The notes: generated by a model from the sequence alone, not told the origin. 64,000 nucleotides of DNA from Escherichia coli (GCF_003334765.1 NZ_QOWT01000007.1); one strand, 5' to 3'. Positions 3,417 through 55,858 are shown, counted from the first letter of the stretch. Made by a program: numbers and translations.

Positions 3417-3869
3417 ATGATCTGGATAATGCTCGCCACGCTGGCGGTAGTGTTTGTGGTTGGTTTTCGGGTGCTGACATCCGGGGCCAGAAAAGCGATT
3501 CGCCGTCTCAGCGATCGGCTGAACATCGATGTCGTACCCGTGGAGTCGATGGTCGATCAAATGGGAAAGTCAGCTGGTGACGAATTTTTACGTTATTTGC
3601 ATCGTCCGGATGAGTCGCACCTGCAAAACGCCGCGCAGGTGTTGCTCATCTGGCAAATTGTCATTGTCGATGGTAGCGAACAGAACCTGCTGCAATGGCA
3701 TCGGATTTTACAAAAAGCTCGCCTCGCCGCGCCGATTACCGACGCTCAGGTCAGGCTGGCGCTAGGTTTTCTGCGCGAAACCGAACCTGAAATGCAGGAT
3801 ATTAATGCTTTTCAGATGCGCTATAACGCGTTCTTTCAGCCTGCCGAGGGCGTTCACTGGTTGCATTGA
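3417..3869 (+). CDS. yicN: DUF1198 family small membrane protein
   Basis: ORF 3390..3869; single N-terminal hydrophobic segment; start at MIWIM gives 150 aa; upstream in-frame ATG at 3390 also possible. Confidence 0.65.
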   Translation: MIWIMLATLAVVFVVGFRVLTSGARKAIRRLSDRLNIDVVPVESMVDQMGKSAGDEFLRYLHRPDESHLQNAAQVLLIWQIVIVDGSEQNLLQWHRILQKARLAAPITDAQVRLALGFLRETEPEMQDINAFQMRYNAFFQPAEGVHWLH

Positions 3870-4079
3870 AACCGTTTCGTCTTATCAGCCTACAGACCGC
3901 GCCTGACCTGTCGGGTGGATAAGACGTTCACGCCGCATCCGGTAATCTTTGCCCTGTTCCGTTTCGATCTTAACTCCAGCTCAAGCAACACCGTAAAAGT
4001 TGCAAAAACGTTAAATGCGTCACACATTTCAATGTTAAAGTGGTCGGCTTTTCCCCTGAAACATGCCACGGGTAACACC

Positions 4080-5270
4080 ATGAGTGAATTTATTGCCGAA
4101 AACCGCGGCGCGGATGCCATCACCCGACCGAACTGGTCAGCCGTTTTCTCGGTGGCGTTTTGTGTCGCCTGTCTGATTATCGTTGAGTTTTTGCCCGTCA
4201 GTTTGTTGACGCCAATGGCCCAGGATTTAGGCATTTCGGAAGGGGTTGCCGGGCAATCGGTGACCGTGACCGCCTTTGTGGCAATGTTTGCCAGTTTGTT
4301 TATTACCCAGACAATTCAGGCTACTGACCGCCGCTACGTTGTTATTTTGTTTGCCGTTTTGCTGACGCTCTCCTGCTTGCTGGTTTCCTTTGCTAACTCA
4401 TTCAGTTTGCTTTTAATCGGTCGTGCCTGTCTGGGGCTGGCGCTGGGCGGGTTCTGGGCGATGTCGGCGTCGCTGACCATGCGTCTGGTGCCGCCGCGTA
4501 CGGTGCCGAAGGCGCTGTCGGTGATCTTCGGCGCGGTTTCTATTGCGCTGGTGATTGCCGCGCCGTTGGGCAGTTTTTTAGGCGAGCTTATCGGTTGGCG
4601 CAATGTCTTTAATGCGGCGGCGGTGATGGGCGTGCTGTGTATTTTCTGGATTATCAAATCATTGCCTTCACTGCCAGGCGAACCCTCGCATCAGAAACAA
4701 AATACTTTCCGCTTATTACAACGTCCGGGTGTGATGGCAGGGATGATCGCCATCTTCATGTCTTTCGCCGGGCAGTTTGCTTTCTTCACGTATATTCGCC
4801 CGGTGTATATGAACCTGGCGGGATTCGGCGTGGATGGCTTAACGCTGGTGCTGTTGAGTTTTGGTATCGCCAGCTTTATTGGTACGTCGCTTTCGTCGTT
4901 CATTCTTAAACGTTCGGTAAAACTGGCCTTAGCAGGCGCGCCGTTAATACTGGCTGTGAGTGCGTTGGTACTGACGTTGTGGGGAAGCGATAAAATCGTT
5001 GCTACCGGCGTGGCGATTATCTGGGGGCTAACTTTTGCATTGGTTCCCGTCGGCTGGTCAACGTGGATCACCCGCTCGCTGGCCGATCAGGCAGAAAAAG
5101 CCGGGTCTATTCAGGTGGCGGTTATTCAGCTTGCTAATACCTGTGGCGCGGCAATCGGCGGTTATGCGCTGGATAATATTGGTCTGACTTCGCCGTTGAT
5201 GTTGTCCGGCACATTGATGTTGCTGACTGCATTGTTGGTTACTGCAAAGGTGAAAATGAAGAAATCCTGA
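4080..5270 (+). CDS. nepI: MFS purine ribonucleoside efflux pump
   Basis: ORF 3915..5270; start placed at [10 protein letters not shown] (396 aa); multi-TM MFS pattern. Confidence 0.85.
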
Positions 5271-8866: not shown

Positions 8867-9502
8867 TCTTCTGAATCACCGGGCGAAAAAATATAACTGA
8901 GTTACAAATAAGTACCAGTCGAATGAGTATTGTATTAAGAATTTTTGAGTATCGCTGATACAACCAGAAAGCAATGCTAGCGCAATATTATAGGGCCAGC
9001 AATTGAGATTATTAGTAAAAGCATGTTAAGAATTAATTACCGAATTTATATATTAATTATAGTAAGGCAATGAGCTATTTTTGATAGTAAAAATAAAACA
9101 AGTTGATTTGATATATTAAATGAACAAATTAATCTTGATGGCAGTCTGATTATTGGTGAAGTTTATAGTCAGTTTTTTTCGCCAGCGGTTAAAGAAATAG
9201 AATAGTCGTATAAAAAAGGGTGTTCTGGGGCGAGTAAAACAACATCTTCACCTTAATGGCGATACAGTTGGCTGAGAGTCAGCAGGGGGGCAAATCACCT
9301 GCAAATAAACACGGCGCATACTGGCGTGAATATCGCGGATGCGTTCGAGGACAGAAGAACCGACAGGCGGATTCTTCAGCCGCTCATCGTCCATCACAAA
9401 ACCTTAGACCAGGTATTCCTGAAGCCGATTGAATATTGAGCAGTAGAAAATATCTGGATTGACAGTATTACAAGGGGTTGGAGAACGTCAGGAGAGGCAT
9501 TT

Positions 9503-9597
9503 TGGCGGAAGATCACAGGAGTCGAACCTGCCCGGGACCGCTGGCGGCCCCAACTGGATTTGAAGTCCAGCCGCCTCACCGGAGACGACGATCTTCC
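9503..9597 (-). tRNA. selC: tRNA-Sec (selenocysteine tRNA)
   Basis: Minus strand reads GGAAGATCGTCGTCTCCGGTGAGGCGGCTGGACTTCAAATCCAGTTGGGGCCGCCAGCGGTCCCGGGCAGGTTCGACTCCTGTGATCTTCCGCCA, the 95-nt selC sequence with long extra arm and UCA anticodon. Confidence 0.95.
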
Positions 9598-37279: not shown

Positions 37280-37626
37280 AATAAATAGCTGACTTATGGA
37301 TGTGCTGGGGATTCTATGTATTTAGCACCGGGTTTGCCATTACTTTTCCTTTTTTTGACTTAATTAGCCTCTGTTTGAGCTGATCTGCCGCTAGATCTTC
37401 ATTTTTTTTGTATTTTTATGCGATTCATTGAATTTCAGCCAGGATTGCAGCTTTACATCGACAATATCTGGATTCTCGAGTATGCAAAATTTTATCTCTA
37501 TGATTTTTATAATTAAAACATATTTTGTGTATAAAAATCATTCGGGTCGGATTGCTGCGAAAGAAATGATACACTAGCGCGTCAAAGTAAGTGCGTTATC
37601 AGTATTCGGGTAGCTGTTGAGCCTGG

Positions 37627-37638
37627 GGCGGTAGCGTG
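37627..37638 (+). promoter_or_regulatory. ops element (RfaH recruitment site, JUMPStart region) in the waaQ leader
   Basis: Exact GGCGGTAGCGTG followed by a T run, about 50-85 nt upstream of the waaQ start. Confidence 0.8.
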
Positions 37639-37721
37639 CTTTTTTCTGCTTAACTTAACCAGACAATCACACAAAAGAGTCGCTAGTGGAAAAGCCATTT
37701 CGAAAAATCCTGGTCATAAAG

Positions 37722-38756
37722 ATGCGATATCACGGAGATATGTTATTAACTACTCCTGTAATCAGTACACTCAAGCAGAATTATCCCGACGCAAAAATCG
37801 ATATGCTGCTTTACCAGGATACAATTCCGATTTTATCTGAAAACCCAGAAATTAATGCACTCTATGGTATAAGCAATAAAGGTACGGGAACATTCGATAA
37901 AATTAAAAATGCACTTTCACTGATAAAAACTCTGCGTGCGAATAATTACGACCTGGTCATTAATCTTACGGATCAGTGGATGGTGGCCCTGCTGGTACGT
38001 TGTTTACCTGCTCGTATGAAAATATCGCAGCTTTATGGTCATCGGCAGCATGGCATTTGGAAAAAAAGCTTTACACACTTAGCGCCTATACACGGTACAC
38101 ATATTGTTGAGCGTAATTTGTCGGTCCTTGAGCCATTAGGTATTACCGATTTTTATACTGAAACAACCATGAGTTACGCCGAGGATTGCTGGAAGAAAAT
38201 GCGCCAGGAATTAGATGCACTGGGCGTGAAAGATCATTATGTCGTCATCCAGCCGACAGCCAGACAGATATTTAAGTGCTGGGACAACGATAAATTTTCT
38301 ATGGTTATCGATGCGTTGCAACATCGTGGTTATCAGGTTGTGCTGACTTGTGGCCCTTCGGCAGATGATCTCGCTTGCGTAGATGAAATTGCACGAGGCT
38401 GCCAAACAAAACCTATTACCGGCCTTGCCGGTAAAACACGTTTTCCTGAACTGGGCGCATTAATTGATCATGCAGTGCTCTTTATTGGTGTGGATTCTGC
38501 GCCGGGGCATATTGCAGCGGCTGTGAAGACGCCAGTTATTAGCCTGTTTGGGGCCACTGATCATGTATTCTGGCGTCCATGGACCGAGAATATTATTCAG
38601 TTCTGGGCGGGGAATTATCAAAAAATGCCTACCCGGCACGAACTTGACCGCAACAAAAAATATCTTTCTGTTATTCCAGCGGAAGATGTCATTGCCGCTA
38701 CGGAAAAGCTGTTGCCAGAAGATGCACCTTCAGCTGACAGGAATGCGCAATTATGA
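37722..38756 (+). CDS. waaQ: LPS heptosyltransferase III
   Basis: GT9 heptosyltransferase; start placed at MRYHGDMLLTTPV (344 aa); in-frame GTG at 37686 is an alternative. Confidence 0.85.
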   Translation: MRYHGDMLLTTPVISTLKQNYPDAKIDMLLYQDTIPILSENPEINALYGISNKGTGTFDKIKNALSLIKTLRANNYDLVINLTDQWMVALLVRCLPARMKISQLYGHRQHGIWKKSFTHLAPIHGTHIVERNLSVLEPLGITDFYTETTMSYAEDCWKKMRQELDALGVKDHYVVIQPTARQIFKCWDNDKFSMVIDALQHRGYQVVLTCGPSADDLACVDEIARGCQTKPITGLAGKTRFPELGALIDHAVLFIGVDSAPGHIAAAVKTPVISLFGATDHVFWRPWTENIIQFWAGNYQKMPTRHELDRNKKYLSVIPAEDVIAATEKLLPEDAPSADRNAQL

Positions 38757-39877
38757 TCGTGGCATTTTGCTTATATAAATATTTTCCATTTGGTGGGCTA
38801 CAGCGTGACTTTATGCGTATTGCCTCAACAGTTGCCGCACGGGGCCACCATGTTCGGGTATATACACAGTCGTGGGAAGGCGATTGCCCGGAAGCATTTG
38901 AGCTTATTCGCGTACCGGTTAAATCCCATACTAACCATGGACGTAATGCAGAATATTATGCCTGGGTTCAAAACCATCTGAAGGCACATCCCGCTGATCG
39001 CGTTGTTGGCTTTAATAAGATGCCTGGGCTGGATGTTTATTTTGCCGCCGATGTCTGTTATGCCGAGAAAGTGGCGCAAGAAAAGGGATTTTTCTATCGT
39101 TTAACATCGCGCTATCGCCATTATGCTGCATTCGAGCGAGCGACTTTCGAACATGGTAAATCGACGAAACTTATGATGTTGACCGATAAGCAAATCGCCG
39201 ATTTTCAGAAGCATTACCAAACTGAACCAGAACGTTTTCAAATTCTTCCCCCTGGTATCTATCCTGACAGAAAATACAACGCGCAAATCCCAAACAGTCG
39301 TGAAATTTATCGCCAGAAAAATGGCATCACTGAACAACAAAACTTATTGCTGCAGGTTGGTTCAGATTTTGGTCGTAAAGGTGTGGATCGCTCAATTGAA
39401 GCTTTGGCATCGTTACCAGAATCGTTACGCCATAATACGTTGTTGTTTGTTGTTGGCCAGGATAAACCGCGTAAATTTGAAGTGCTGGCAGAAAAACTCG
39501 GTGTGCGTAGTAAAGTGCATTTCTTTTCCGGGCGGAATGATGTGTCTGAATTAATGGCAGCCGCTGATTTATTAATGCATCCCGCTTATCAGGAGGCTGC
39601 AGGTATTGTTCTCCTTGAGGCAATTGCCGCGGGATTACCTGTGTTGACGACTGCGGTATGCGGATACGCACACTATATCACAGATGCTAATTGTGGAACG
39701 GTCATCGCTGAACCTTTCTCCCAGGAACAATTAAATGACGTTTTACGTAAAGCGTTAACTCAATCTCCATTGCGCATGGCCTGGGCGGAGAATGCTCGGT
39801 ATTACGCCGATACTCAGGATTTATACAGCCTGCCGGAGAAAGCGGCAGATATCATTACAGGTGGTTTAGATGGTTGA
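38753..39877 (+). CDS. waaG: LPS glucosyltransferase I (GT4)
   Basis: 374 aa [24 protein letters not shown]; 4-nt ATGA overlap with waaQ. Confidence 0.9.
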
Positions 39878-40667
39878 ATTAGAAGAGCCACTTGCCACAC
39901 TCTGGCGTGGTAAAGATGCCTTTGCAGAAGTTAAAAAACTGAATGGCGAGGTCTTCCGTGAACTGGAGACGCGTCGCACATTACGCTTTGAACTGGCCGG
40001 CAAAAGTTATTTCCTCAAATGGCACAAAGGGACGACCCTAAAGGAGATTATAAAAAATCTGCTCTCATTGCGGATGCCCGTTTTAGGTGCAGACAGAGAG
40101 TGGCACGCTATTCATCGACTGCATGATGTCGGTGTTGATACGATGCACGGAATAGGATTTGGTGAAAAAGGGTTAAATCCATTAACTCGCACATCATTTA
40201 TTATTACCGAAGATCTCACTCCCACAATTAGCCTTGAAGATTATTGTGCAGATTGGGCGGTCAACCCGCCTGATGTACATATTAAGCGTATGCTGATCGC
40301 GCGTGTGGCAACCATGGTGCGCAAAATGCATGCAGCAGGGATTAATCACCGTGATTGTTATATCTGCCACTTTTTACTCCATTTGCCATTTACTGGCCGG
40401 GAAGATGAATTAAAAATTTCGGTTATCGATCTGCACCGGGCACAGATACGTGCAAAAGTACCACGTCGTTGGCGGGATAAAGATTTGATTGGTTTATATT
40501 TCTCATCAATGAATATTGGTCTGACGCAGAGAGATATCTGGCGATTTATGAAGGTTTATTTTGGGATGCCTTTACGCGATATTTATAGACTTGAGATTGA
40601 TTTACTTAAAAAGGCAAGGATTAAAGCAGGAAAAATAGAAGCAAGAACAATAAGAAAAAACTTGTAA
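39870..40667 (+). CDS. waaP: LPS core heptose(I) kinase
   Basis: 265 aa; kinase-like HRDCYICHF motif; 8-nt overlap with waaG. Confidence 0.9.
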
Positions 40668-40699
40668 ATAGTATTTTATTACAAAAAGGGATTCTAAAA

Positions 40700-41680
40700 T
40701 TGTTGAAATATAGAAACTTCGTTGCTAAGAAGAAAAATTTATACCAAAACGAAGTGTCGTATGTTAAAAATTTACATATTGCACTATGCTTTGACCGTGA
40801 ATTCATAATGCCAGCGGGTGTTGCATTATATTCAATTATATCCAACAATAGACATATTAACCTTCATTTTCACCTTCTTATATCAGGCATAGAAGAAAAG
40901 GAGTGTTCAGCTTTTTACGAACTAGAAGGTCCTAATACATCAATATCTGTATATTATATAACTGATAAATTTGACATTAATCCGGATACATTAGTTCTTG
41001 GTATTCCTTTATCAACATGTTTACGTTTTTTAATCCCAGAAGTTATTGATGATAAAATAAATAAGATACTTTATCTTGACTGTGATGTCATATGTAATGG
41101 TCCTTTAGATGAACTGGTTGATTATAATTTAAATGCTGATATTGCATGTGTAATTCCAGATTCGCCAGAAATGCAAGAACGTGTAAAAAAATTAGACTAT
41201 GGCATTGAGTTTATTAATTATTTTAATGCCGGGGTTATGTTTATTAATACCAGCGAATGGAAAAAAAATAATATAACACAAAAAGCGTTAGAAATGATCA
41301 ACAGTGGAAAAGTATATAGGTATGCAGATCAGGATGTGCTCAATATTTTACTTAATGGACGAGTGCATTACCTTGATAAGAAGTACAATAATAAGACAAC
41401 ATTGTCAGTACGATGTGATGAAGAACAAAAAAACTTGCCCAACACAATTATAATGCATTATGTTACCCAGAATAAACCATGGTACAAAATATTTAGAGCA
41501 CAAAATTTTGATCATTATTTTTCAAATTCTCCTTGGAAGAACCATAAAAGAAATCTAGCTCCATCATCAAGTGAGATTAGGTTAAAGTCTAAAGTTTTTT
41601 GGCTAGAAGGAAAATATTGTAAAGCCATTTCTTATTATTATAAGTATTTACTTGTTAAATTATTTGGCTTAAAGATTTAG
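40700..41680 (+). CDS. GT8-family LPS core glycosyltransferase at the position K-12 gives to waaS
   Basis: 326 aa; GT8 motifs shared with the two downstream paralogs (LYLDCDVICNG, YFNAGVMFIN, DQDVLN, KPW); low GC. Confidence 0.6.
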   Translation: MLKYRNFVAKKKNLYQNEVSYVKNLHIALCFDREFIMPAGVALYSIISNNRHINLHFHLLISGIEEKECSAFYELEGPNTSISVYYITDKFDINPDTLVLGIPLSTCLRFLIPEVIDDKINKILYLDCDVICNGPLDELVDYNLNADIACVIPDSPEMQERVKKLDYGIEFINYFNAGVMFINTSEWKKNNITQKALEMINSGKVYRYADQDVLNILLNGRVHYLDKKYNNKTTLSVRCDEEQKNLPNTIIMHYVTQNKPWYKIFRAQNFDHYFSNSPWKNHKRNLAPSSSEIRLKSKVFWLEGKYCKAISYYYKYLLVKLFGLKI

Positions 41681-41693
41681 CTGGAATGAAATT

Positions 41694-42773
41694 ATGAAAA
41701 TAGCCTTTATTGGCGAAGCTGTTTCTGGATTTGGCGGCATGGAAACAGTCATTCGTGATGTTATTACTACCTTCAGGCAACAACATATCCAAAGTGAAAT
41801 TTTTTTCTTTTGTCGTAATGACAAAATGGATAAGGGATGGCTGGAAGGTATTAAGTACTCGTGTTCATTTTCCAATATTCGCTTAGGTTTTTTGCGTCGC
41901 GCGAAACATATTCATGCTTTAAGCAAATGGCTTCATGATTATCAGCCAGATGTTGTTATTTGTATTGACGTGATCTCGTGTTTGTATGCGGCCAAAGCTC
42001 GTAAAAAATCGGGGATTGATGTACCTGTATTTTCATGGCCGCATTTTTCTTTAGATCATAAAAAACATGCCGAATATATCACCTGTGCCGACTATCATTT
42101 AGCCATCAGCTCTGGTATTAAACAGCAAATGATTAGCCGGGGTGTACCAGAATCGACAATAAACGTTATTTTTAATCCCGTTGAGGCGAAAAATTCAGTC
42201 ATTCCTGCACCCGGGGAAGGCGAAACGGCAACATTCATTTATGTTGGGCGCATGAAATTTGAAGGCCAAAAGCGCGTAAAAGATCTGCTTGATGGCTTAT
42301 CACAAGTGCAAGGTGACTGGAAACTTCATGTATTGGGAGATGGCTCCGATTTCGAAAAATGCCAGGCTTATGGTAGAGGATTAAATATTGATGATCGAAT
42401 TGTCTGGTATGGTTGGCAACAACATCCCTGGAAATTAGTTCAGCAAGATATTAAAAAAGTGAGTGCATTATTACTCACGTCATCTTTTGAAGGTTTCCCA
42501 ATGACTCTACTTGAAGCCTTGTCGTGGGGGATCCCTTGTATCAGTGCAGATTGTGTCTCCGGGCCTGTTGATATCATTCAGCCTGATGTTAATGGTCATT
42601 TATATCAACCGGGGGATATGACCGGTTTTGTTGCTCTTCTCAATAAATACATAGCCGGTGAAATTCACATCGCACATGAAAAAATTCCGGCGTCGATCGA
42701 TAAATTTTATCAACCGAAATATTACGACAGATTGCAAAAGATAATTATTTCTGTTATTTCCCGGAGGAAATAA
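41694..42773 (+). CDS. waaB: LPS alpha-1,6-galactosyltransferase (GT4)
   Basis: 359 aa MKIAFIGEAVSGFGGMETVI...FFFCRNDKMDK; closely matches recalled WaaB. Confidence 0.8.
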   Translation: MKIAFIGEAVSGFGGMETVIRDVITTFRQQHIQSEIFFFCRNDKMDKGWLEGIKYSCSFSNIRLGFLRRAKHIHALSKWLHDYQPDVVICIDVISCLYAAKARKKSGIDVPVFSWPHFSLDHKKHAEYITCADYHLAISSGIKQQMISRGVPESTINVIFNPVEAKNSVIPAPGEGETATFIYVGRMKFEGQKRVKDLLDGLSQVQGDWKLHVLGDGSDFEKCQAYGRGLNIDDRIVWYGWQQHPWKLVQQDIKKVSALLLTSSFEGFPMTLLEALSWGIPCISADCVSGPVDIIQPDVNGHLYQPGDMTGFVALLNKYIAGEIHIAHEKIPASIDKFYQPKYYDRLQKIIISVISRRK

Positions 42774-43792
42774 TGCAGCAGGTTTTTTTCCAGGAGACTG
42801 AGTTTCTCAATTCGGTTATTGATTATAATCATAAAATAGAAGCAGAAAATCTTTGTCTGGATATTGCTTATGGGACTGACAAAAATTTTCTTTTTGGATG
42901 CGGAATATCGATTGCTTCAATATTAAAATATAATGAAGGAAATCAATTATGCTTTCATATTTTTACTGATTATTTCGGTGATGACGATCGCAAATATTTT
43001 GATGCCCTGGCCAGGCAATATAAAACAAGAATTAAGATATATTTAATTAATGGTGATCGACTCCGTTCATTACCCTGCACCAAGAACTGGACTCATGCTA
43101 TTTATTTTCGTTTTGTTATCGCCGATTACTTTTTTAATAAAGCACCCAAAGTTCTTTATCTGGATGCAGATATTATTTGTCAGGGAACTATAGAACCACT
43201 TATCAATTACACGTTTTCTGAACATACAGTCGCAATGGTTGTTACAGAAGGACAAAAAGACTGGTGGGCAAAACGTGCTCATTCGTTAGGTGTTGCTGGG
43301 ATTGCTAATGGTTACTTTAACTCCGGTTTTTTACTGATTAATACTAATCAATGGACGAATGAGCGGGTTTCTGCACGGGCCATTGCAATGTTAAGTGATC
43401 CAGAGATAGTCAAAAAAATAACACATCCTGATCAGGATGTATTAAATATGTTATTGGCAGACAAACTTGTTTATGCTGATATTAAATATAACACTCAGTT
43501 TAGTTTAAATTATCAACTAAAAGAAAGTTTTAAAAACCCAGTAACTAACGATACAGTTTTTATTCATTATATTGGTCCAACTAAACCCTGGCATGACTGG
43601 GCCTGGGATTATCCAATATCACAAGCTTTTATGGCGGCAAAAAATGCTTCACCATGGAAGGATACTGCGTTATTGAAACCGGTTAATAGTAATCAATTAA
43701 GATACAGTGCTAAACATATGTTGAAAAAAAAGCAATATATCAAAGGATTTGGCAACTATCTTTTGTATTTTATAAAAAAGCTAAAGCATTAA
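42773..43792 (+). CDS. waaO: GT8 LPS outer-core alpha-1,3-hexosyltransferase (WaaI/WaaO-like)
   Basis: 339 aa GT8 paralog; 1-nt overlap with waaB stop. Confidence 0.65.
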   Translation: MQQVFFQETEFLNSVIDYNHKIEAENLCLDIAYGTDKNFLFGCGISIASILKYNEGNQLCFHIFTDYFGDDDRKYFDALARQYKTRIKIYLINGDRLRSLPCTKNWTHAIYFRFVIADYFFNKAPKVLYLDADIICQGTIEPLINYTFSEHTVAMVVTEGQKDWWAKRAHSLGVAGIANGYFNSGFLLINTNQWTNERVSARAIAMLSDPEIVKKITHPDQDVLNMLLADKLVYADIKYNTQFSLNYQLKESFKNPVTNDTVFIHYIGPTKPWHDWAWDYPISQAFMAAKNASPWKDTALLKPVNSNQLRYSAKHMLKKKQYIKGFGNYLLYFIKKLKH

Positions 43793-43802
43793 TACTGATA
43801 AT

Positions 43803-43931
43803 CTATACTCTAAATAATTCGAGTTGCAGGACAAAAAGCCAGTGGCGTTTTGAGGAACGCTTGCGTTGGCCCTGAAATGCCGAGTAACTCGCCGATGCAG
43901 CACATGCAACTTGAAGTATAACGAGTATATA
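43803..43931. repeat. ERIC/IRU-like imperfect palindromic intergenic repeat, variant centre
   Basis: Ends CTATACTCTAAATAATTCGAGTTGCAGG ... GCACATGCAACTTGAAGTATAACGAGTATATA are inverted copies of each other, a sequence class I recognise as ERIC arms; the centre lacks the canonical ERIC core. Confidence 0.45.
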
Positions 43932-43955
43932 AAGTAATGATATAAGGATAGCCTT

Positions 43956-44972
43956 GTGAACTCATTTCCTGCCATAGAGATAGATAAAGTTAAAGCCTGG
44001 GATTTTAGGCTTATTGATGAAAATACTGCTGAAAGTTTAAATGTTGCCTATGGTGTCGATTCCAATTATCTTGATGGTGTAGGTGTTTCCATTACTTCAA
44101 TTGTCATTAATAATCGACATGTTAATCTTGATTTTTATATTATTGCTGATGTTTATAACGACGATTTCTTTCAAAAAGTTGAGAAACTTGCTGAGCAATA
44201 CCAATTAAGAATCACACTTTATAGAATAAATACTGATAATCTTCAGTGCCTGCCTTGTACACAAGTCTGGTCAAGAGCAATGTACTTCCGTTTATTTGCT
44301 TTTCAATTATTGGGAGTAACACTTAATCGTTTGCTTTATCTTGATGCCGATGTAGTTTGTAAGGGAAATATTAGTCAACTATTGCATTTAGAGTTTAATG
44401 GAGCGGTGGCTGCAGTAGTCAGGGATGTAGACCCAATGCAGGAAAAGGCGGTAGTCAGATTATCTGATCCTGAACTTCGGGGGCAGTATTTTAATTCTGG
44501 TGTCGTTTACTTAGACCTAAAAAAATGGACAGAAGCAAAACTAACCGAAAAAGCACTGTCTATTCTTATGAGTAAAGATAGTATTTATAAGTATCCTGAC
44601 CAGGACGTTATGAATGTCCTACTAAAAGGGATGACAATATTCCTGCCACGTGAGTTCAATACTATATATACAATAAAAAGTGAGTTAAAAGATAAAACGC
44701 ATCAAAAATATAAAGAGTTGATAAAAGAGGATACTCTTCTTATTCATTATACTGGGGCCACCAAGCCGTGGCACAAATGGGCAATTTATCCATCGGTAAA
44801 ATACTATAAAATAGCTTTAGAAAGATCCCCCTGGAAAGATGACTCACCACGAGATGCAAAATCAATTATTGAATTCAAAAAAAGATATAAACATCTGTTA
44901 GTGCAACATCATTATATCTCAGGACTCATTGCAGGAGTGTGTTATCTTTGCCGAAAATATTACCGTAAATAA
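43956..44972 (+). CDS. waaJ: GT8 LPS outer-core alpha-1,2-glucosyltransferase
   Basis: 338 aa; N-terminus and body closely match recalled K-12 WaaJ/WaaR (…SFPAIEIDKVKAWDF..., C-terminal HHYISG.IAGVCYLCRKYYRK). Confidence 0.8.
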   Translation: MNSFPAIEIDKVKAWDFRLIDENTAESLNVAYGVDSNYLDGVGVSITSIVINNRHVNLDFYIIADVYNDDFFQKVEKLAEQYQLRITLYRINTDNLQCLPCTQVWSRAMYFRLFAFQLLGVTLNRLLYLDADVVCKGNISQLLHLEFNGAVAAVVRDVDPMQEKAVVRLSDPELRGQYFNSGVVYLDLKKWTEAKLTEKALSILMSKDSIYKYPDQDVMNVLLKGMTIFLPREFNTIYTIKSELKDKTHQKYKELIKEDTLLIHYTGATKPWHKWAIYPSVKYYKIALERSPWKDDSPRDAKSIIEFKKRYKHLLVQHHYISGLIAGVCYLCRKYYRK

Positions 44973-44989
44973 CATTTAACTGGTTTAAC

Positions 44990-45688
44990 ATGATTCAGAA
45001 GAATAAAATCAAAGATTTAGTTGTTTTTACCGATGAAAATAACTCAAAGTATCTCAATGTATTAAATGACTTTCTTTCTTATGATATTAATATCATCAAA
45101 GTTTTTCGTTCTATAGATGATACAAAAGTCATGCTTATTGATACCGATTACGGTAAATTGATACTTAAAGTTTTTTCGCCTAAAGTAAAACGCAACGAAC
45201 GTTTCTTTAAATCTCTTTTAAAGGGAGATTATTATGAACGCCTTTTTGAGCATACTCAAAAAGTGCGTAACGAGGGGCTACATTCTCTCAATGATTTTTA
45301 TTTGTTGGCAGAACGGAAAACATTACGTTTTGTCCATACTTATATCATGCTTATCGAATATATCGATGGCGTAGAGTTGTGTGATATCCCCGATATTGAT
45401 GAAACTTTAAAAAATAAAATTCAACAATCAATTCGTTCATTACACGAACACGGTATGGTATCTGGTGATCCTCACCGCGGTAATTTTATTATTGAAAATG
45501 GTGAAGTACGCATTATTGATCTTTCAGGAAAACGGGCATCTGCACAACGTAAAGCGAAAGATCGTATTGATTTAGAGCGACATTATGGTATTAAGAATGA
45601 GGTTAAAGATCTCGGTTATTATCTTTTAGTTTATCGTAAAAAAATACGTAATCTTATGCGGCGTTTGAAAGGGAAGCCAGCACGATAA
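44990..45688 (+). CDS. waaY: LPS core heptose(II) kinase
   Basis: 232 aa, kinase-like; position after waaJ. Confidence 0.85.
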   Translation: MIQKNKIKDLVVFTDENNSKYLNVLNDFLSYDINIIKVFRSIDDTKVMLIDTDYGKLILKVFSPKVKRNERFFKSLLKGDYYERLFEHTQKVRNEGLHSLNDFYLLAERKTLRFVHTYIMLIEYIDGVELCDIPDIDETLKNKIQQSIRSLHEHGMVSGDPHRGNFIIENGEVRIIDLSGKRASAQRKAKDRIDLERHYGIKNEVKDLGYYLLVYRKKIRNLMRRLKGKPAR

Positions 45689-45759
45689 AGTAAAAGTCTT
45701 ACATTTAAACGTCTTCGTCAGGACATTTCTATGCGGAGTTCTTATTTCACAGGTTTATC

Positions 45760-46569
45760 ATGAAGAATATTAGATACATTGACAAAAAAGATGTTGAAAA
45801 CCTGATAGAAAGTAAAACGTCTGATGATGTTATTATTTTTCTTTCCGGCCCCACATCGCAAAAAACACCATTGTCAGTGCTGCAGACAAGGGATGTTATT
45901 GCTGTCAATGGTTCTGCACAATATCTATTAAGTCATAATATTATTCCCTATATTTATGTACTTACCGATGTTCGCTTTTTACATCAACGGCGTGATGATT
46001 TTTATAAATTTAGCCAGAGAAGTCGTTATACCATCGTAAATGTTGACGTTTATGAACATGCTTCTGAAGAAGATAAGCGGTACATCCTTCAAAACTGCCT
46101 GGTACTACGTTCATTTTACCGCAGAGAAAAAGGTGGATTGATCAAGAAGATCAAGTTTAATATTTTGAGCCGAATTCATAAAGAGCTCCTGATCTCTGTA
46201 CCTTTTTCTAAAAAAGGTCGTCTGGTTGGCTTTTGCAAGGATATTAACCTCGGTTATTGTTCATGCCATACCGTTGCTTTTGCTGCAATCCAAATAGCCT
46301 ATTCGCTGAAGTATGCTCGTATTATCTGTTCAGGCCTTGATTTAACGGGTAGCTGTTCGCGTTTCTATGATGAAGATAAGAATCCTATGCCCTCAGAGTT
46401 GATTCGGGATTTATTCAAAATTTTACCATTTTTCCGTTTTATGCGTGAAAATATAGAAGATATCAATATTTATAATTTATCCGACGATACTGCAATTCAA
46501 TATGATATTATTCCCTATATGAAAATATCCGAAATTGAAGAGCCGTGTGTTTATGAAAAAATAAGCTAA
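45760..46569 (+). CDS. waaZ: LPS core biosynthesis protein WaaZ (KdoIII-associated)
   Basis: 269 aa; position and similarity to recalled WaaZ; low GC. Confidence 0.7.
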   Translation: MKNIRYIDKKDVENLIESKTSDDVIIFLSGPTSQKTPLSVLQTRDVIAVNGSAQYLLSHNIIPYIYVLTDVRFLHQRRDDFYKFSQRSRYTIVNVDVYEHASEEDKRYILQNCLVLRSFYRREKGGLIKKIKFNILSRIHKELLISVPFSKKGRLVGFCKDINLGYCSCHTVAFAAIQIAYSLKYARIICSGLDLTGSCSRFYDEDKNPMPSELIRDLFKILPFFRFMRENIEDINIYNLSDDTAIQYDIIPYMKISEIEEPCVYEKIS

Positions 46570-46621
46570 TATTTTATATGTGTTTATTACGTGTTATAAA
46601 TTATATTGGAGTTGGCTAATA

Positions 46622-47764
46622 ATGATTAAAAAAATAATATTTACCGTCACACCAATATTTTCTATACCGCCAAAAGGAGCTGCAGCGGTTGAAACATGGA
46701 TTTATCAGGTCGCAAAAAGACTTTCGATTCCAGTAACTATCGCCTGTATTCGAAACGAAGGTTACCCAACCTACACAAAAGTAAATGATCACTGTGATAT
46801 TCACTACATTGGTTTTAGTCGAGTCTATAAACGACTTTTCCAAAAGTGGACTCGACTTGATCCTGTGCCATATTCTCAGCGTATTTTAAATACCCAACCT
46901 AAAAACACTGATCCGAAAGACTCTGTTATTGTTATCCACAATAGCATGAAGCTGTATAAACAGATTCGTAGCAGAAGCCCTCACGCGCAGCTAGTTATGC
47001 ATCTTCATAATGCTTTCGAGCCAGGTGAGTTAGACAAAAATGCAAAGATAATTGTTCCTAGCCAGTTTCTTTTCGATTTCTATTCGGAAAAAATGCCTGA
47101 TGCAAATATTGCTATTGTGCCTAATGGTTTTTGTTCTGAATCGTATGAACAAAATAATACTGAAGATTTGAGGCAGAAACTGAACATTGATGCAAATGAT
47201 ACCGTGTTATTATTTGCAGGAAGGATATCACCAGATAAAGGTTGCCTGATGCTTATGGAGGCTTTTAATCAGCTGAATAAGATACAAGATAACCTCAAAC
47301 TGGTGATTGTCGGAGATCCTTTTGCCAGTAAAAAAGGCGAAAAAGCTGAATATCAGAAAAAAGTTCTGGATGCAGCGAAAGCTATTGGAGCGCAATGCAT
47401 TATGGCGGGTGGACAGCCTCCAGAGCAGATGCATAACTATTACCGTTTAGCAGATTTAGTTGTTGTTCCTTCTCAGGTAGAAGAAGCTTTTTGTATGGTA
47501 GCTGTTGAAGCGATGGCGGCAGGTAAACCAGTGCTTGCCAGTCAAAAAGGTGGAATTAGTGAGTTTGTTCTGGAAGGAATTACAGGCTATCACCTTGCAG
47601 AGCCTATGACATCTGAAAGTATTCTCGCGGATATTAAGCGCGTTTTGGCGGATGCTGACAGAGCTCAAATTGCTAAAAATGCCCGAAATTTTGTTTTCTC
47701 AAAATATAGCTGGGAACATGTTACTCAGCGTTTTGAAGCACAAATACAAGACTGGTTTGGTTAA
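46622..47764 (+). CDS. waaK: GT4 glycosyltransferase, WaaK-like (GlcNAc transferase in Salmonella and R2 cores)
   Basis: ORF 46580..47764; start at MIKKIIFTV with GGAG Shine-Dalgarno (381 aa); GT4 EX7E-type C-terminal domain; not a GT9 heptosyltransferase like K-12 WaaU. Confidence 0.65.
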   Translation: MIKKIIFTVTPIFSIPPKGAAAVETWIYQVAKRLSIPVTIACIRNEGYPTYTKVNDHCDIHYIGFSRVYKRLFQKWTRLDPVPYSQRILNTQPKNTDPKDSVIVIHNSMKLYKQIRSRSPHAQLVMHLHNAFEPGELDKNAKIIVPSQFLFDFYSEKMPDANIAIVPNGFCSESYEQNNTEDLRQKLNIDANDTVLLFAGRISPDKGCLMLMEAFNQLNKIQDNLKLVIVGDPFASKKGEKAEYQKKVLDAAKAIGAQCIMAGGQPPEQMHNYYRLADLVVVPSQVEEAFCMVAVEAMAAGKPVLASQKGGISEFVLEGITGYHLAEPMTSESILADIKRVLADADRAQIAKNARNFVFSKYSWEHVTQRFEAQIQDWFG

Positions 47765-47782
47765 AAATTATTGGATTTGAAG

Positions 47783-47819
47783 AGCCTGCCTGAACTTAAT
47801 GTCAGGCAGGCTTTTTTTT
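47783..47819 (+). terminator. intrinsic terminator at the end of the waaQ operon, overlapping the waaL stop
   Basis: AGCCTGCCTGA-acttaatg-TCAGGCAGGCT 11-bp stem followed by T8. Confidence 0.75.
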
Positions 47820-49035
47820 ATTTATTCCGCATTGCTAACAGTAAACCAACAATCAAGCCAATTGGTTTGAGATCAACTTCCTCGAAGTTACCTCGAATAA
47901 TATAAAAGCTTACAAGCGTTAAAAATAGTAGTAATTGACCATTATAAGGAGTGACGACAACTGTTTTAAACGTTGCATTAGCTGTCTCTTTGATAATAGA
48001 GCCATACAGATAAAGTAAAGCGAGTAGTCCAGCCAAACCCGCTGCAAACCAAATTGACAAAACAACGTTGTGTGGCCCAATGGATTGCCTGAACTTCCAT
48101 GACGGAAAATCTACAACACGCTTATTATATATTGCATGGTAAATATCATCGCCGTAGCCATATCCCTTAAGAGGATTTTCCATAATTAATGTCCACGCCG
48201 TACCTTGAGTACCATTGGTATAGCGATAAGAACTGTCGGTCTGTTGAAGTTTATAAATAAGCCTGTCTTTACCAGCATGATCACCTTTATAGGTAAATAC
48301 ACCCACTGCGGCAACAGAAATAACGATGGAAGTCAGCATCAATAATTTCCACTGACGATTTAAGATTAACCATAGCAGAGTCACTATGAATACTGCCAGC
48401 CATGCACCACGAGACAGCGTTCCTAATAGCAGAAATAAGAAAACTGCACTAAAAATTACGAATGCTATTTTATAAGAGGTTTTCTTGATAAGCCAAAGGT
48501 TTAATAATGCTGGAAACAGAAACACCATTGAATCGGAAATACTACGGTGTTCATAGGTGGAAAATGGCATTATTCCTTTATTATAATCCTGAATATAAAG
48601 AATAAGTTCAACAAGACAACGTAAGCCAAGTCCGGTAACTAATGAGTATAGTACAATTTTACCAATGCTTTCATTATCTTCATCTTTTAATAATGCAGGT
48701 ATAAGTAAACTATAGGCCAAAAATCCTTTAAGTACCGTATTACTGAATTCTTTAAAACTGATTTTCAGATCAGGTGATATAAAAGTAGCATATAAAAGAA
48801 TGAGTGATAGTGCCAGGACACTATAAAAAAGATTATTTTTATAGAGTACTTTAAATGTTCCCGGAGCACGAGAAACTTGATAGATTACCGTAATAATCAT
48901 TAGTATAGATATGATGTGTTTATAACGGGTTATACCATCAAGGAAAAAGGTTGCAATAAAGAGGAATACCAACGCTTTATTCCAGTACGGTTTCCACTTT
49001 TCTTTATTACGTAGCGCCAGCGAGGCTGTTAACAT
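47818..49035 (-). CDS. waaL: O-antigen ligase
   Basis: 405 aa polytopic protein, N-terminus MLTASLALRNKEKWKPYWNKALVFLF; resembles the Salmonella-type WaaL I recall, not K-12 WaaL. Confidence 0.8.
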   Translation of the reverse strand: MLTASLALRNKEKWKPYWNKALVFLFIATFFLDGITRYKHIISILMIITVIYQVSRAPGTFKVLYKNNLFYSVLALSLILLYATFISPDLKISFKEFSNTVLKGFLAYSLLIPALLKDEDNESIGKIVLYSLVTGLGLRCLVELILYIQDYNKGIMPFSTYEHRSISDSMVFLFPALLNLWLIKKTSYKIAFVIFSAVFLFLLLGTLSRGAWLAVFIVTLLWLILNRQWKLLMLTSIVISVAAVGVFTYKGDHAGKDRLIYKLQQTDSSYRYTNGTQGTAWTLIMENPLKGYGYGDDIYHAIYNKRVVDFPSWKFRQSIGPHNVVLSIWFAAGLAGLLALLYLYGSIIKETANATFKTVVVTPYNGQLLLFLTLVSFYIIRGNFEEVDLKPIGLIVGLLLAMRNK

Positions 49036-49073
49036 TGCTTCTCCACCATCTTAAATAATATATAACGTATTAA

Positions 49074-50030
49074 TCAGGAATTGATTTTATTAAATACCGT
49101 TTCTGCAGTCAGATGAGCAAGATCTTTATCTGGTGCCCTACAAACCACCTGATTCTTCCCATATCCGCCAATTAATCCCGGATCGGTTGGTCCATAAACC
49201 GTGATATTCGGTCGATCCAGTGCTGCAGTTAAATGACTTAACCCAGTGTCTACCGATACCACGAATTTCGCTCCGGCCAGCACACGGGCAACACCTTCCA
49301 GACTCATCTTCGGCAATACTTCAACATAAGCAAATCCTTCCGCCAGTCGTTTCGCCCGTTTTTCCTCATGCGGCGCACCCCACGGAAGTTTAATGCGAAT
49401 CCCTGAATCTGCCAGTAAACCAATCAATTCTCGCCAGTGTTCTTCCGGCCAGTGTTTATCATCACGGGTCGTCGCATGAAGAAATACGGCATATTCGCCA
49501 GCATCTGTAGGCAGGTTCGTCAGAAAATGCTGTGCGATAGCATAATCGCCCTGGGTTTGCGGTTTGCTATAGCCCAGACTTTTGGCAAAAAGTTCGCGGA
49601 TGCGTTCTACGGCGTGCTGCTGTTTTGCAATATGATGTTTACGATTGTAAAACAGGCTGGCTAAAGGTTCGCGAGCGGTTTGCCAGTCCATTCCATGCTT
49701 TACGCCATGCGCCAGACGCGTCACCAGCGCCGCGCTTTTTACCAGCCCCTGAGCATCGATAACTGCGTCATAGTTCTCTGCTTGTAGCGCTTCACGAAAC
49801 GCTTTGCGTTCAGCTTTTATGGGGGCCGAGAACCAGGCTTTACGCCAGCGACGTATTGCCACAGGAATAACTCGCTCAACGGCGGCGTGCCAGGAAGGAA
49901 TCTGTGCGAACCCTTCTTCCACCACCCAGTCAAACTTAATCCCTGGGATTGCCTGCTGGGCATCAGTGAGTGCGGGCAACGTATGGAGAACATCGCCCAT
50001 CGACGATGTTTTAACGATCAAAACCCGCAT
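49074..50030 (-). CDS. waaC: LPS heptosyltransferase I
   Basis: 318 aa MRVLIVKTSSMGDVLHTLPALTDA, GT9. Confidence 0.9.
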   Translation of the reverse strand: MRVLIVKTSSMGDVLHTLPALTDAQQAIPGIKFDWVVEEGFAQIPSWHAAVERVIPVAIRRWRKAWFSAPIKAERKAFREALQAENYDAVIDAQGLVKSAALVTRLAHGVKHGMDWQTAREPLASLFYNRKHHIAKQQHAVERIRELFAKSLGYSKPQTQGDYAIAQHFLTNLPTDAGEYAVFLHATTRDDKHWPEEHWRELIGLLADSGIRIKLPWGAPHEEKRAKRLAEGFAYVEVLPKMSLEGVARVLAGAKFVVSVDTGLSHLTAALDRPNITVYGPTDPGLIGGYGKNQVVCRAPDKDLAHLTAETVFNKINS

Positions 50031-50033
50031 CCG

Positions 50034-51080
50034 TCAGGCTTCCTCTTGTAACAATAGAGAGTTGAGTTCTTCCAGCACGCGCTGGGGAGTAATGTCGATC
50101 AAGCTCTGGTGATAACCTTCTGCGGCGTCGCCTTTGCGTACTTTGTGATAGCCGGTAATCAGGCGGATCACGCGCGCTTTATGGGATAGCGGCGGTGTGA
50201 AGTCCGGGCTACTCGGACCATACAGGGCAACCAGCGGACGATTGAGCGCCGCCGCAACGTGCATCAGGCCAGAATCGTTAGTGACAATGGCTTTACAGGC
50301 TGCAATCAGGATAACCGCTTGATCAAGCTGTGTTTCCCCCGCCAGGTTCCGGCACCATGCCTGCTGCTCGGTATTTAAAGCGGCAAGAATCTCATTGCCC
50401 GCTTCATGATCTTTCGCCGAGCCAAACAGAACCACTTGATAACCTTCATCAATCAGTTGCTTTGCCAGTTCCGCATAGTGGTAGTGTGGCCAGCGTTTTG
50501 CCGGACCAAACTCCGCACCCGGGCAAAAACCAATCATTGGACGTTCTGATGAAAGCGAAAATTGATTACAGGTATATGATTTTTCACCTTCGCTCACCTG
50601 CAACTGCGGCCATAACAATGGCTGCGGCAGATCTTGTGCGGTACGCATAATACCTTTGTCATAGGCCAGCGCCACATAGCGTTCCACCATCAGCGGCCAG
50701 GCTTCTTTATCCAGCACACGCACATCGTTGAGTAAACCGTAGCGCATTTCGCCGCGCCAGCCGGTGCGATGAGGAATACCCGCGAAGAAAGGCACTAATG
50801 CGGATTTGAAGGAGTTGGGTAAAACGTAGGCGCGGTCGTAACGTTTTTCGCGCAGGCTATGACCCAGCTTGCGGCGTTCGCCAATTTCCAGCGCCCCGTG
50901 ACCAAGCGGCATAGGAATGGCTTCGTTAACTTCCGGCATCCGCGATAATAATGGACGGCACCATGCCGGTGCCATCACGTCGATTATCGCCTGGGGATAG
51001 CGCGCCTGGAGCGTGCGATAGAGACTTTGCGACATCATCATGTCGCCAACCCATGACGGGCCGATCACCAATATTTTCAT
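50034..51080 (-). CDS. waaF: LPS heptosyltransferase II
   Basis: 348 aa MKILVIGPSWVGDMMMSQSLYRTLQ, GT9. Confidence 0.9.
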   Translation of the reverse strand: MKILVIGPSWVGDMMMSQSLYRTLQARYPQAIIDVMAPAWCRPLLSRMPEVNEAIPMPLGHGALEIGERRKLGHSLREKRYDRAYVLPNSFKSALVPFFAGIPHRTGWRGEMRYGLLNDVRVLDKEAWPLMVERYVALAYDKGIMRTAQDLPQPLLWPQLQVSEGEKSYTCNQFSLSSERPMIGFCPGAEFGPAKRWPHYHYAELAKQLIDEGYQVVLFGSAKDHEAGNEILAALNTEQQAWCRNLAGETQLDQAVILIAACKAIVTNDSGLMHVAAALNRPLVALYGPSSPDFTPPLSHKARVIRLITGYHKVRKGDAAEGYHQSLIDITPQRVLEELNSLLLQEEA

Positions 51081-51207
51081 TCACTTCATCCTTCAAGCTG
51101 TCTCTGCGGCGGCTGCCTGCGTTCACTCCGGTCACTTACTTTTGTAAGCTCCCGGAGATTCACTTAGCTGCTGCCTTGATACCGCTCGAATGATTTTGTG
51201 AATTTAC
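51081..51207. repeat. ERIC (IRU) element between hldD and waaF
   Basis: Gene-strand core GTGAATCTCCGGGAGCTTACAAAAGTAAGTGACCGGAGTGAACG (plus 51120..51163) matches the ERIC1R-complement/ERIC2 primer sequence GTGAATCCCCAGGAGCTTACATAAGTAAGTGACTGGGGTGAGCG with compensatory stem changes; about 127 bp. Confidence 0.7.
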
Positions 51208-52140
51208 GTTGATGTCGCGATTCAGCCAGGCCATGTATTCCGTTACGCCTTCGGCAACGGTTTTGAACGGTTTGTCATAACCCGCCGCGCGCAGATTCGT
51301 CAGATCTGCCTGCGTGAATGCCTGATAGCGGCCTTTCAGTTTATCCGGGAACGGAATGTATTCGATCTGGCCTTTCTTGTGATAAGCAAGCGTTGCATCG
51401 GCTACCGCCTGGAAGGATTCCGCACGACCAGTACCGAGGTTGAAGATGCCGGAAACGCCATTTTCCAGGAACCACAGGTTTACATCTGCCACGTCGCCAA
51501 CATAGACGAAGTCGCGTTTAAAGTTCTCGCTACCTTCGAACAGCTTCGGTGATTCACCGTTATTAAGCTGGGTGTTGAGATGGAAAGCGACGCTCGCCAT
51601 GCTGCCTTTATGGCCTTCACGCGGTCCATAAACGTTGAAATAACGGAAGCCAACAATCTGTGAGTTTGCTTCCGGCAGAATTTGACGAACATATTCATCA
51701 AACAGGAATTTCGAGTAACCGTAGACGTTCAACGGTTTTTCGTACTCGCGGGATTCAATAAAGTCGGAAGTGCGACCGCCGTAAGTGGCTGCGGATGAAG
51801 CGTACAGGAACGGGATTTCACGCTCCAGGCAGTAGTGCAGCAGCTCCTTGGAGTATTGATAGTTGTTATCCATCATATACTTGCCGTCCCACTCGGTGGT
51901 GGAAGAGCACGCGCCTTCGTGGAAAATCGCTTCGACATCGCCGAACTCTTCGCCAGCCATAATCTGGATCAGGAAGTCTTCCTTATCCATATAGTCTGCG
52001 ATATTCAGGTCCACCAGGTTCACAAACTTGGTGCCGTCTTTCAGGTTGTCCACCACCAGAATATCGGTGATGCCTTTGTCATTCAGGGCTTTAACGATGT
52101 TGCTGCCGATAAAGCCCGCGCCGCCGGTAACGATGATCAT
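51160..52140 (-). CDS. hldD: ADP-L-glycero-D-manno-heptose 6-epimerase, open frame extended into the ERIC element
   Basis: 326-aa ORF; residues 1-309 read as HldD ([23 protein letters not shown] ... EYMAWLNRD), then 17 extra residues [17 protein letters not shown] encoded by the repeat; recalled K-12 protein ends ...WLNRDA at 310 aa. Confidence 0.85.
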
Positions 52141-54823: not shown

Positions 54824-55858
54824 ATGATGAACAGCACCAATAAACTTAGTGTTATTATTCCGTTATATAATGCGGGCGATGATTTCCGCACTTGTATGGA
54901 ATCTTTAATTACGCAAACCTGGACTGCTCTGGAAATCATTATTATTAACGATGGTTCAACGGATAATTCTGTTGAAATAGCAAAGCATTACGCAGAAAAC
55001 TATCCGCACGTTCGTTTGTTGCATCAGGCGAATGCTGGCGCATCGGTGGCGCGTAATCGTGGGATTGAAGTGGCAACGGGCAAATATGTCGCTTTTGTCG
55101 ATGCTGACGATGAAGTCTATCCCACCATGTACGAAACGCTGATGACCATGGCGTTAGAGGACGACCTCGACGTGGCGCAGTGCAACGCTGACTGGTGTTT
55201 TCGTGAAACGGGAGAAACCTGGCAATCCATCCCCACCGATCGCCTTCGCTCAACCGGCGTCTTAACCGGCCCGGACTGGCTGCGGATGGGGCTTTCTTCG
55301 CGCCGTTGGACTCACGTTGTCTGGATGGGGGTTTATCGCCGTGATGTTATTGTTAAAAATAACATTAAATTTATTGCCGGATTACATCATCAGGATATTG
55401 TCTGGACAACAGAATTCATGTTTAACGCGCTGCGTGCGCGATATACCGAGCAATCATTATATAAATATTATCTGCATAATACGTCAGTGAGTCGGTTGCA
55501 TAGACAAGGGAATAAAAACCTTAATTATCAACGTCACTATATTAAGATTACCCGCCTGCTGGAGAAATTAAATCGAAATTATGCCGACAAAATTATGATT
55601 TATCCGGAATTTCATCAGCAAATAACTTACGAGGCATTGCGTGTTTGCCATGCGGTGCGCAAAGAGCCGGATATTCTTACCCGCCAACGGATGATTGCCG
55701 AGATATTTACTTCCGGTATGTATAAGCGCCTGATTACCAATGTGCGCAGCGTGAAGGTCGGTTACCAGGCGTTACTGTGGTCTTTCCGCTTATGGCAATG
55801 GCGCGACAAAACGCGGTCGCACCATCGCATTACGCGTAGCGCCTTTAATTTGCGCTAG
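54824..55858 (+). CDS. waaH: GT2-family glycosyltransferase (LPS glucuronic acid transferase WaaH/YibD)
   Basis: 344 aa; GT2 motifs LSVIIPLYNAGD and VAFVDADDE. Confidence 0.85.
   Translation: MMNSTNKLSVIIPLYNAGDDFRTCMESLITQTWTALEIIIINDGSTDNSVEIAKHYAENYPHVRLLHQANAGASVARNRGIEVATGKYVAFVDADDEVYPTMYETLMTMALEDDLDVAQCNADWCFRETGETWQSIPTDRLRSTGVLTGPDWLRMGLSSRRWTHVVWMGVYRRDVIVKNNIKFIAGLHHQDIVWTTEFMFNALRARYTEQSLYKYYLHNTSVSRLHRQGNKNLNYQRHYIKITRLLEKLNRNYADKIMIYPEFHQQITYEALRVCHAVRKEPDILTRQRMIAEIFTSGMYKRLITNVRSVKVGYQALLWSFRLWQWRDKTRSHHRITRSAFNLR

Follow-up and report, generated by a model that had tools for sequence, protein, structure and literature searches.

Which lipopolysaccharide (LPS) core does a hybrid-looking Escherichia coli waa locus build, and what does the gene that occupies its waaS position encode? 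The locus is chromosomal and lies at positions 37686-52140 of the window, the whole 64,000-nucleotide stretch of E. coli DNA (GCF_003334765.1 NZ_QOWT01000007.1) analysed here. Its genes are ordered waaQ-waaG-waaP-wabA-waaB-waaO-waaJ(R)-waaY-waaZ-waaK on the plus strand and waaL-waaC-waaF-hldD on the minus strand. A reading made earlier from the DNA alone (the sequence-only reading) had described a K-12/Salmonella hybrid, R2-like core and had singled out the glycosyltransferase family 8 (GT8) gene between waaP and waaB as unexpected. Because of exact primer matches, about 500 matching genomes, the gene order of strain NCTC9087, the gene names used in the typing literature (PMC13293308), per-gene identities and NCBIfam scores, we consider it highly probable that the window holds the waa locus of an R2 core-type strain, in which the first GT8 gene is wabA in the slot of K-12 waaS.

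Core type of the waa locus

A 2025 study of LPS core typing gives R2-specific primers in waaZ and waaK that yield a 610-bp product (PMC13293308). Both match the window with 0 mismatches, R2-R in waaZ at 46106-46126 (plus strand) and R2-F in waaK at 46695-46715 (minus strand), and the two sites span exactly 610 bp. The same study lists waaK, waaL and wabA as R2 genes, wabA being its name for the R2 gene in the waaS slot; it also describes further R2/K-12 hybrid loci and, for the K-12/Salmonella hybrid nature of R2, refers to Heinrichs 1998. The R2 gene content (waaQGP-wabA-waaB-waaO-waaJ/R-waaY-waaZ-waaK plus waaL) is found here by open reading frames (ORFs), RefSeq annotation and NCBIfam scores alike, with the WaaK and WaaL of Salmonella type that mark R2 in place of the K-12 WaaU and WaaL. 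With the R2 core-type locus as described (prototype strain F632; Heinrichs et al. 1998, J Biol Chem 273:8849, cited in PMC13293308), the window shares the gene order, waaL on the opposite strand, the 610-bp primer product and the combination of a Salmonella-like WaaK and WaaL with an otherwise K-12-like remainder.

The cluster is common among sequenced strains. The block 37600-49100 was detected by megablast at a coverage of at least 80% in 501 of 5,426 complete E. coli genomes (about 9%); 480 of the 501 carry it at an identity of at least 99%, many at 100%. The NCTC9087 chromosome is collinear with the window (waa block 100% identical, left 34.7 kb 100%, right 13 kb 99.97%), and its RefSeq-annotated waa locus has the identical gene order.

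We compared the genes one by one with the K-12 cluster of MG1655 and with a Salmonella locus (L003) that carries a wabA ortholog and was recovered via a protein that NCBI names Salmonella enterica subsp. salamae. In amino acid (aa) identity to K-12 and to this Salmonella locus, respectively, WaaQ (heptosyltransferase III; 37686..38756, as in the RefSeq annotation of the identical NCTC9087 locus) scores 98% and 79%, WaaG (glucosyltransferase I; 38753..39877) 96% and 86%, and WaaP (HepI kinase; 39870..40667) 91% and 82%. The genes 3' of wabA follow the same pattern on the plus strand: WaaB (alpha-1,6-galactosyltransferase, 359 aa; 41694..42773; 593 bits to NF007396 against a cut-off of 385) has 92% and 63%, WaaO (the GT8 enzyme for the second outer-core hexose, 339 aa; 42773..43792; 572 bits to NF011718, cut-off 461) 88% and 55%, the latter to Salmonella WaaI, and WaaJ, equivalent to WaaR (GT8 alpha-1,2-glucosyltransferase, 338 aa; 43956..44972), 90% and 58%. 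They are followed by WaaY (HepII kinase, 232 aa; 44990..45688; above the NF007684 cut-off) with 92% and 67%, and WaaZ (KdoIII transferase, 269 aa; 45760..46569; 547 bits to NF007333, cut-off 473) with 89% and 69%. On the minus strand, WaaC (heptosyltransferase I; 49074..50030) has 95% and 84%, and WaaF (heptosyltransferase II; 50034..51080) 99% and 93%. All genes from waaQ to waaZ, wabA apart, are therefore K-12 orthologs at 88-98% identity, and with waaC and waaF included the range is 88-99%, in conserved order. The Salmonella locus has the full gene order of the window, including a GT8 gene between waaP and waaB, whereas its middle genes (those of WaaB, WaaO/I and WaaJ above) diverge from the window far more than the K-12 ones do.

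The distal genes differ from those of K-12. The waaK gene (46622..47764, plus strand) encodes a GT4 enzyme, the LPS N-acetylglucosaminyltransferase, with 724 bits to NF012028 (cut-off 618) and 74% identity to the WaaK of the Salmonella locus; K-12 has the GT9 gene waaU in its place and no ortholog, the sole match in the K-12 cluster being WaaG (26% over 182 aa). The waaL gene (47818..49035, minus strand) encodes a Salmonella-like O-antigen ligase of 405 aa with the N-terminus MLTASLALRNKEKWKPYWNK. It reaches 651 bits to NF012031 (RfaL; cut-off 277) and 66% full-length identity to the Salmonella WaaL, with no match to K-12 WaaL at E 1e-3. These gene-by-gene identities fit the published description of R2 as a K-12/Salmonella hybrid.

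Much of the sequence-only reading stands on these data: the ORF positions and lengths (GT8 proteins of 326, 339 and 338 aa, waaB, waaY, waaZ, the GT4 gene, a 405-aa waaL), the hybrid core, a WaaK-like GT4 enzyme instead of WaaU, and a Salmonella-type ligase. The AT-rich block that it described is also there, with a GC content of 0.30-0.39 in 1-kb windows across 40500-49000 against 0.50-0.55 in the flanks; gene by gene, the variable block ranges from 0.30 to 0.40, and wabA is lowest at 0.297. Two details need correction. The last GT8 protein, called near-identical to K-12 WaaJ, is orthologous to it at 89.6%, and the GT4 protein, given as 381 aa, is 380 aa long from the RefSeq ATG or 394 aa from an upstream GTG.

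It is hardly credible that the locus represents a core type not described before, or a hybrid of recent origin that differs from R2. R2/K-12 hybrids do exist: in one K-12-like E. coli cluster a wabA variant of 81% identity occurs together with waaU, and other such loci are reported in PMC13293308. Against such an origin stand the R2 waaZ-waaK junction with its exact primer matches, the R2 pair of waaK and waaL, and a block that many sequenced genomes, NCTC9087 among them, share at 100% identity, all of which already contradict it. The outcome that the sequence-only reading had named as speaking against it, a cluster that matches a characterised core type gene for gene, is what the R2 primers and the gene-for-gene identity with about 500 genomes show. 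The suggestion that the first GT8 gene is unexpected finds no support: it is the wabA of the R2 typing literature, present in every R2-type genome found (503). With this gene-for-gene match to a characterised type, the locus was already known; it is an ordinary R2-type cluster and offers very little that is new. One point weighs against the R2 assignment, namely that it was made from the primers and the published description and not from the sequence of the prototype F632; judged in that way, no difference from the R2 core type was found.

Family, motifs and conservation of WabA

The wabA gene (40700..41680, plus strand) encodes a protein of 326 aa from a TTG start. The protein belongs to GT8 (Pfam PF01501, E 1.6e-49) and also matches, weakly, the C-terminal domain of GT8 (PF08437, E 6.5e-6). 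Along with the catalytic domain it has the DxD, DQD and H-x5-K motifs of the family, found as LDCDV at residue 126, DQDV at 210 and HYVTQNKPW at 253, and YFNAGV at 174. GT8 enzymes act by a retaining, metal-dependent mechanism. The shared domain is also recognised in LgtC, the GT8 alpha-1,4-galactosyltransferase of Neisseria (PDB 1ga8, 1ss9; E 6e-17), with DxD, YFNAG, DQD and H-x5-K aligned; DxD, DQD and H-x5-K fall in the catalytic site of LgtC and are kept across all WabA orthologs and genera. The match to LgtC is nevertheless distant (65 bits in phmmer); the two differ in their acceptor, and the C-terminal tail of WabA is of the enterobacterial core-GT8 type.

WabA forms its own clade, at 26-31% identity to the other core GT8 proteins compared (WaaO and WaaJ of K-12 and R2, WaaI and WaaJ of Salmonella and R3, and WaaO, WaaT and WaaW of R1). 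There is no ortholog in K-12, where the paralogs WaaO and WaaJ are 29-31% identical, and the ortholog of the Salmonella locus is 66% identical. The WaaO/WaaI equivalog model NF011718 gives 183.6 bits, below its cut-off of 461, and no curated NCBIfam family model claims the protein, which NCBI labels only as 'glycosyltransferase family 8 protein'. A full-text literature search for wabA returned only the 2025 typing paper (PMC13293308) and its preprint, and no assigned product was found.

We rejected the idea that WabA is a diverged WaaS, the protein encoded at this place in K-12. The two are unrelated: an alignment of the 40700..41680 product to K-12 WaaS, which the sequence-only reading had named as a check, shows no similarity (best BLASTP E 1.8), and WaaS has no Pfam match and no GT8 domain, in line with the remark in that reading that it is not a recognisable GT8 protein.

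Compared with three diverged orthologs, from E. coli variants and Citrobacter, wabA has a ratio of nonsynonymous to synonymous substitution rates (dN/dS) of 0.12-0.24, similar to that of the neighbouring genes, and each of the 503 E. coli carrier genomes holds the gene in full length. WabA is thus an intact GT8 protein under purifying selection in a clade of its own, and it looks active. That wabA is a silent or decaying paralog, no longer involved in LPS assembly, would agree with the lowest GC in the operon, with the TTG start, and with the lack of both a curated family model and a product in the literature searched. It is made very improbable by the dN/dS values, by catalytic motifs that are all conserved across genera and by the full-length gene in every carrier, and the one Salmonella 'partial' protein that was checked is cut by a contig end and is not a pseudogene.

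Like wabA with its TTG start, its orthologs have no ATG at the conserved N terminus. In the Salmonella locus (L003, 9824-10873) the annotated 290-aa call starts at an internal Met and is probably too short, because this start would remove the first GT8 strand. Many Salmonella assemblies break inside the very AT-rich wabA, which accounts for the 'partial' WabA proteins of that genus; their reading as pseudogenes was rejected on the checked case.

Genomic distribution and proposed function of WabA

Orthologs of WabA with 58-66% identity are encoded directly 3' of waaP in Salmonella, Citrobacter and Pseudocitrobacter loci. The genes further downstream vary: waaK is present in the Salmonella locus, a waaU-like gene of GT9 in those of Citrobacter and Pseudocitrobacter, and waaB is missing from the Pseudocitrobacter locus. 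By contrast, waaZ is present in every wabA locus examined (R2, Salmonella, Citrobacter, Pseudocitrobacter and the E. coli hybrid), and the R1 and R3 loci, inspected to see whether other E. coli core types have wabA, contain no wabA, waaS, waaZ or waaB. Across the E. coli genomes, waaZ was detected in 1,533, waaS in 1,031 and wabA in 503 (the last by sensitive blastn). The latter two add up to 1,534, so that the counts, which are totals and not a genome-by-genome overlap, fit the presence of either waaS or wabA in each waaZ locus.

More distant relatives (43-47% identity) are found in a lipooligosaccharide gene cluster of Gilliamella and as stand-alone genes in Hafnia. One of the latter, a WabA-clade GT8 gene of Hafnia paralvei (CP014031.2; L008, 10001-10969; 46% identical), adjoins the tail-fibre and tail-fibre-assembly genes of a P2-like prophage. 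The tail-fibre region of prophages is a usual site of lysogenic-conversion cargo. A related stand-alone Hafnia copy (L017) lies at the same chromosomal site without a prophage.

A single position in the YFN[A/S]G motif separates the core GT8 enzymes by donor. Among the roughly 13 enzymes compared, whose specificities are taken partly from annotation strings and partly from the general literature, Ala is found in the galactosyltransferases (WaaI of Salmonella and R3, WaaT and WaaW of R1, and LgtC) and Ser in the glucosyltransferases (WaaO of K-12, R2 and R1, where the R2 protein of the window reads YFNSG, and WaaJ/R of K-12, R2, Salmonella and R3). The split holds even within orthologous pairs that differ in donor, such as K-12 WaaO and Salmonella WaaI. 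This residue is therefore a possible single-residue marker of the choice between galactose (Gal) and glucose (Glc). The entire WabA clade has Ala (WabA residues 174-178), from which UDP-Gal is the predicted donor.

As for the acceptor, the position and presence of wabA are independent of the distal outer-core genes and of waaB, and the gene always occurs with waaZ, which suggests that the acceptor lies in the conserved inner core. The inner core of R2 LPS reportedly carries a non-stoichiometric alpha-Gal on Kdo, which Vinogradov and colleagues are said to have described in 1999; our literature search for an R2 inner-core substituent found no text stating it. In K-12, WaaZ is the enzyme for the third Kdo, and WaaS attaches rhamnose in the Kdo region (PMC6358824). 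WabA is the foremost candidate for the alpha-Gal step, and we tentatively propose that it may place this minor alpha-Gal on the Kdo region in the inner core of R2, a possibility that we take seriously.

In the corresponding scheme for the whole locus, the waaQ operon is read through from its JUMPstart leader, and WaaQ, WaaP, WaaY and WaaZ build the inner core. WaaG, WaaO and WaaJ/R assemble the Glc-Glc-Glc backbone of the outer core, WaaB adds the Gal branch and WaaK the terminal GlcNAc, after which the Salmonella-like WaaL ligates the O antigen. WabA would use UDP-galactose to place a non-stoichiometric alpha-Gal on the Kdo region of the inner core, as WaaS does with rhamnose in K-12.

WabA might instead be an outer-core enzyme through which a minor glycoform gains one more alpha-hexose, on an outer-core sugar or on a heptose. 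By annotation and tree, the related waa-locus enzymes that have been characterised (WaaO/I, WaaJ/R/T and WaaW) all act on outer-core hexoses, and the weak match to the shared GT8 C-terminal domain agrees with this. To our knowledge, the published R2 outer core contains no hexose without an assigned enzyme, which we count against such a role. Mass spectrometry of R2 cores released by mild acid hydrolysis showed glycoforms of the composition Glc3-GlcNAc-Gal-Hep3-Kdo (PMC7504096), for which WaaG, WaaO, WaaJ, WaaK and WaaB account fully. The constant position of wabA despite differing distal genes (waaK or waaU-like), in one case without waaB, argues in the same direction, and we regard an outer-core role as unlikely.

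The wider form of the inner-core proposal is put forward with a little more reserve. WabA may be the Kdo-region alpha-galactosyltransferase of R2 and of some Salmonella and Citrobacter cores, the counterpart of the unrelated WaaS; the Hafnia copies of the clade could modify LPS on lysogeny, and the Ala/Ser residue would predict the donor. Several points weigh against the Kdo-region proposal. No text found in the literature search states an alpha-Gal on Kdo in R2 LPS; the waaZ, waaS and wabA counts could reflect a shared locus architecture and not a shared function; and the Ala/Ser rule draws on about 13 enzymes, several with specificities taken from the general literature or read from annotation strings. 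In vitro, moreover, the donor specificity of these enzymes is relaxed.

Small insertions, flanking genes and use of the core type

The leader 5' of waaQ contains a JUMPstart element (37600..37638, plus strand; Rfam RF01707, 53.1 bits against a gathering score of 35). Further along, two small ERIC-like insertions are found in the lineage of the window, the first in the spacer between waaO and waaJ and the second at the junction of hldD and waaF. The first (43804..43929, about 124 bp) has 25-nt terminal inverted repeats; its ends match the ERIC/IRU repeat consensus, whereas its central part has no such match. Neither K-12 nor the variant R2 locus of strain MB53 has this insertion; it occurs in 484 genomes and so marks the main R2 lineage. 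As it lies inside the operon transcript, it might affect the expression of the downstream genes.

The second is an ERIC-like element at 51085-51210 with an ERIC core, recognised by primer-site matches, at 51120-51163. It overlaps the end of hldD (rfaD; 51160..52140, minus strand), whose ORF was aligned to K-12. HldD is 326 aa long and not 310, because the insertion replaces the last codon or two and supplies a new C-terminal tail of 17 residues; the RefSeq annotation of NCTC9087 also has this long form. We considered whether both insertions are copies of one element and rejected this, as they have no detectable similarity to each other and the ERIC core is found only in the one between hldD and waaF.

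Two further genes in the window lie outside the locus. The tRNA-Sec gene selC (9503-9597, minus strand) is accompanied only by a short rhuM pseudogene remnant (9263-9424; together 9263-9597), and selC is a common integration site for genomic islands. The glucuronic acid transferase gene for HepIII, waaH (54824-55858; 3777-4811 in the NCTC9087 locus L012), is located just outside the waa locus, 3' of kbl-tdh, as in K-12.

R2 is one of the five textbook core types of E. coli, and its hybrid nature was published in 1998. The range of O antigens open to ligation is set by the core type, which also influences recognition by phages and antibodies, and for these practical uses the R2 typing of the window is a useful annotation, not a discovery. 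An assigned function for WabA would make the map of enzymes to linkages in the R2 core complete.

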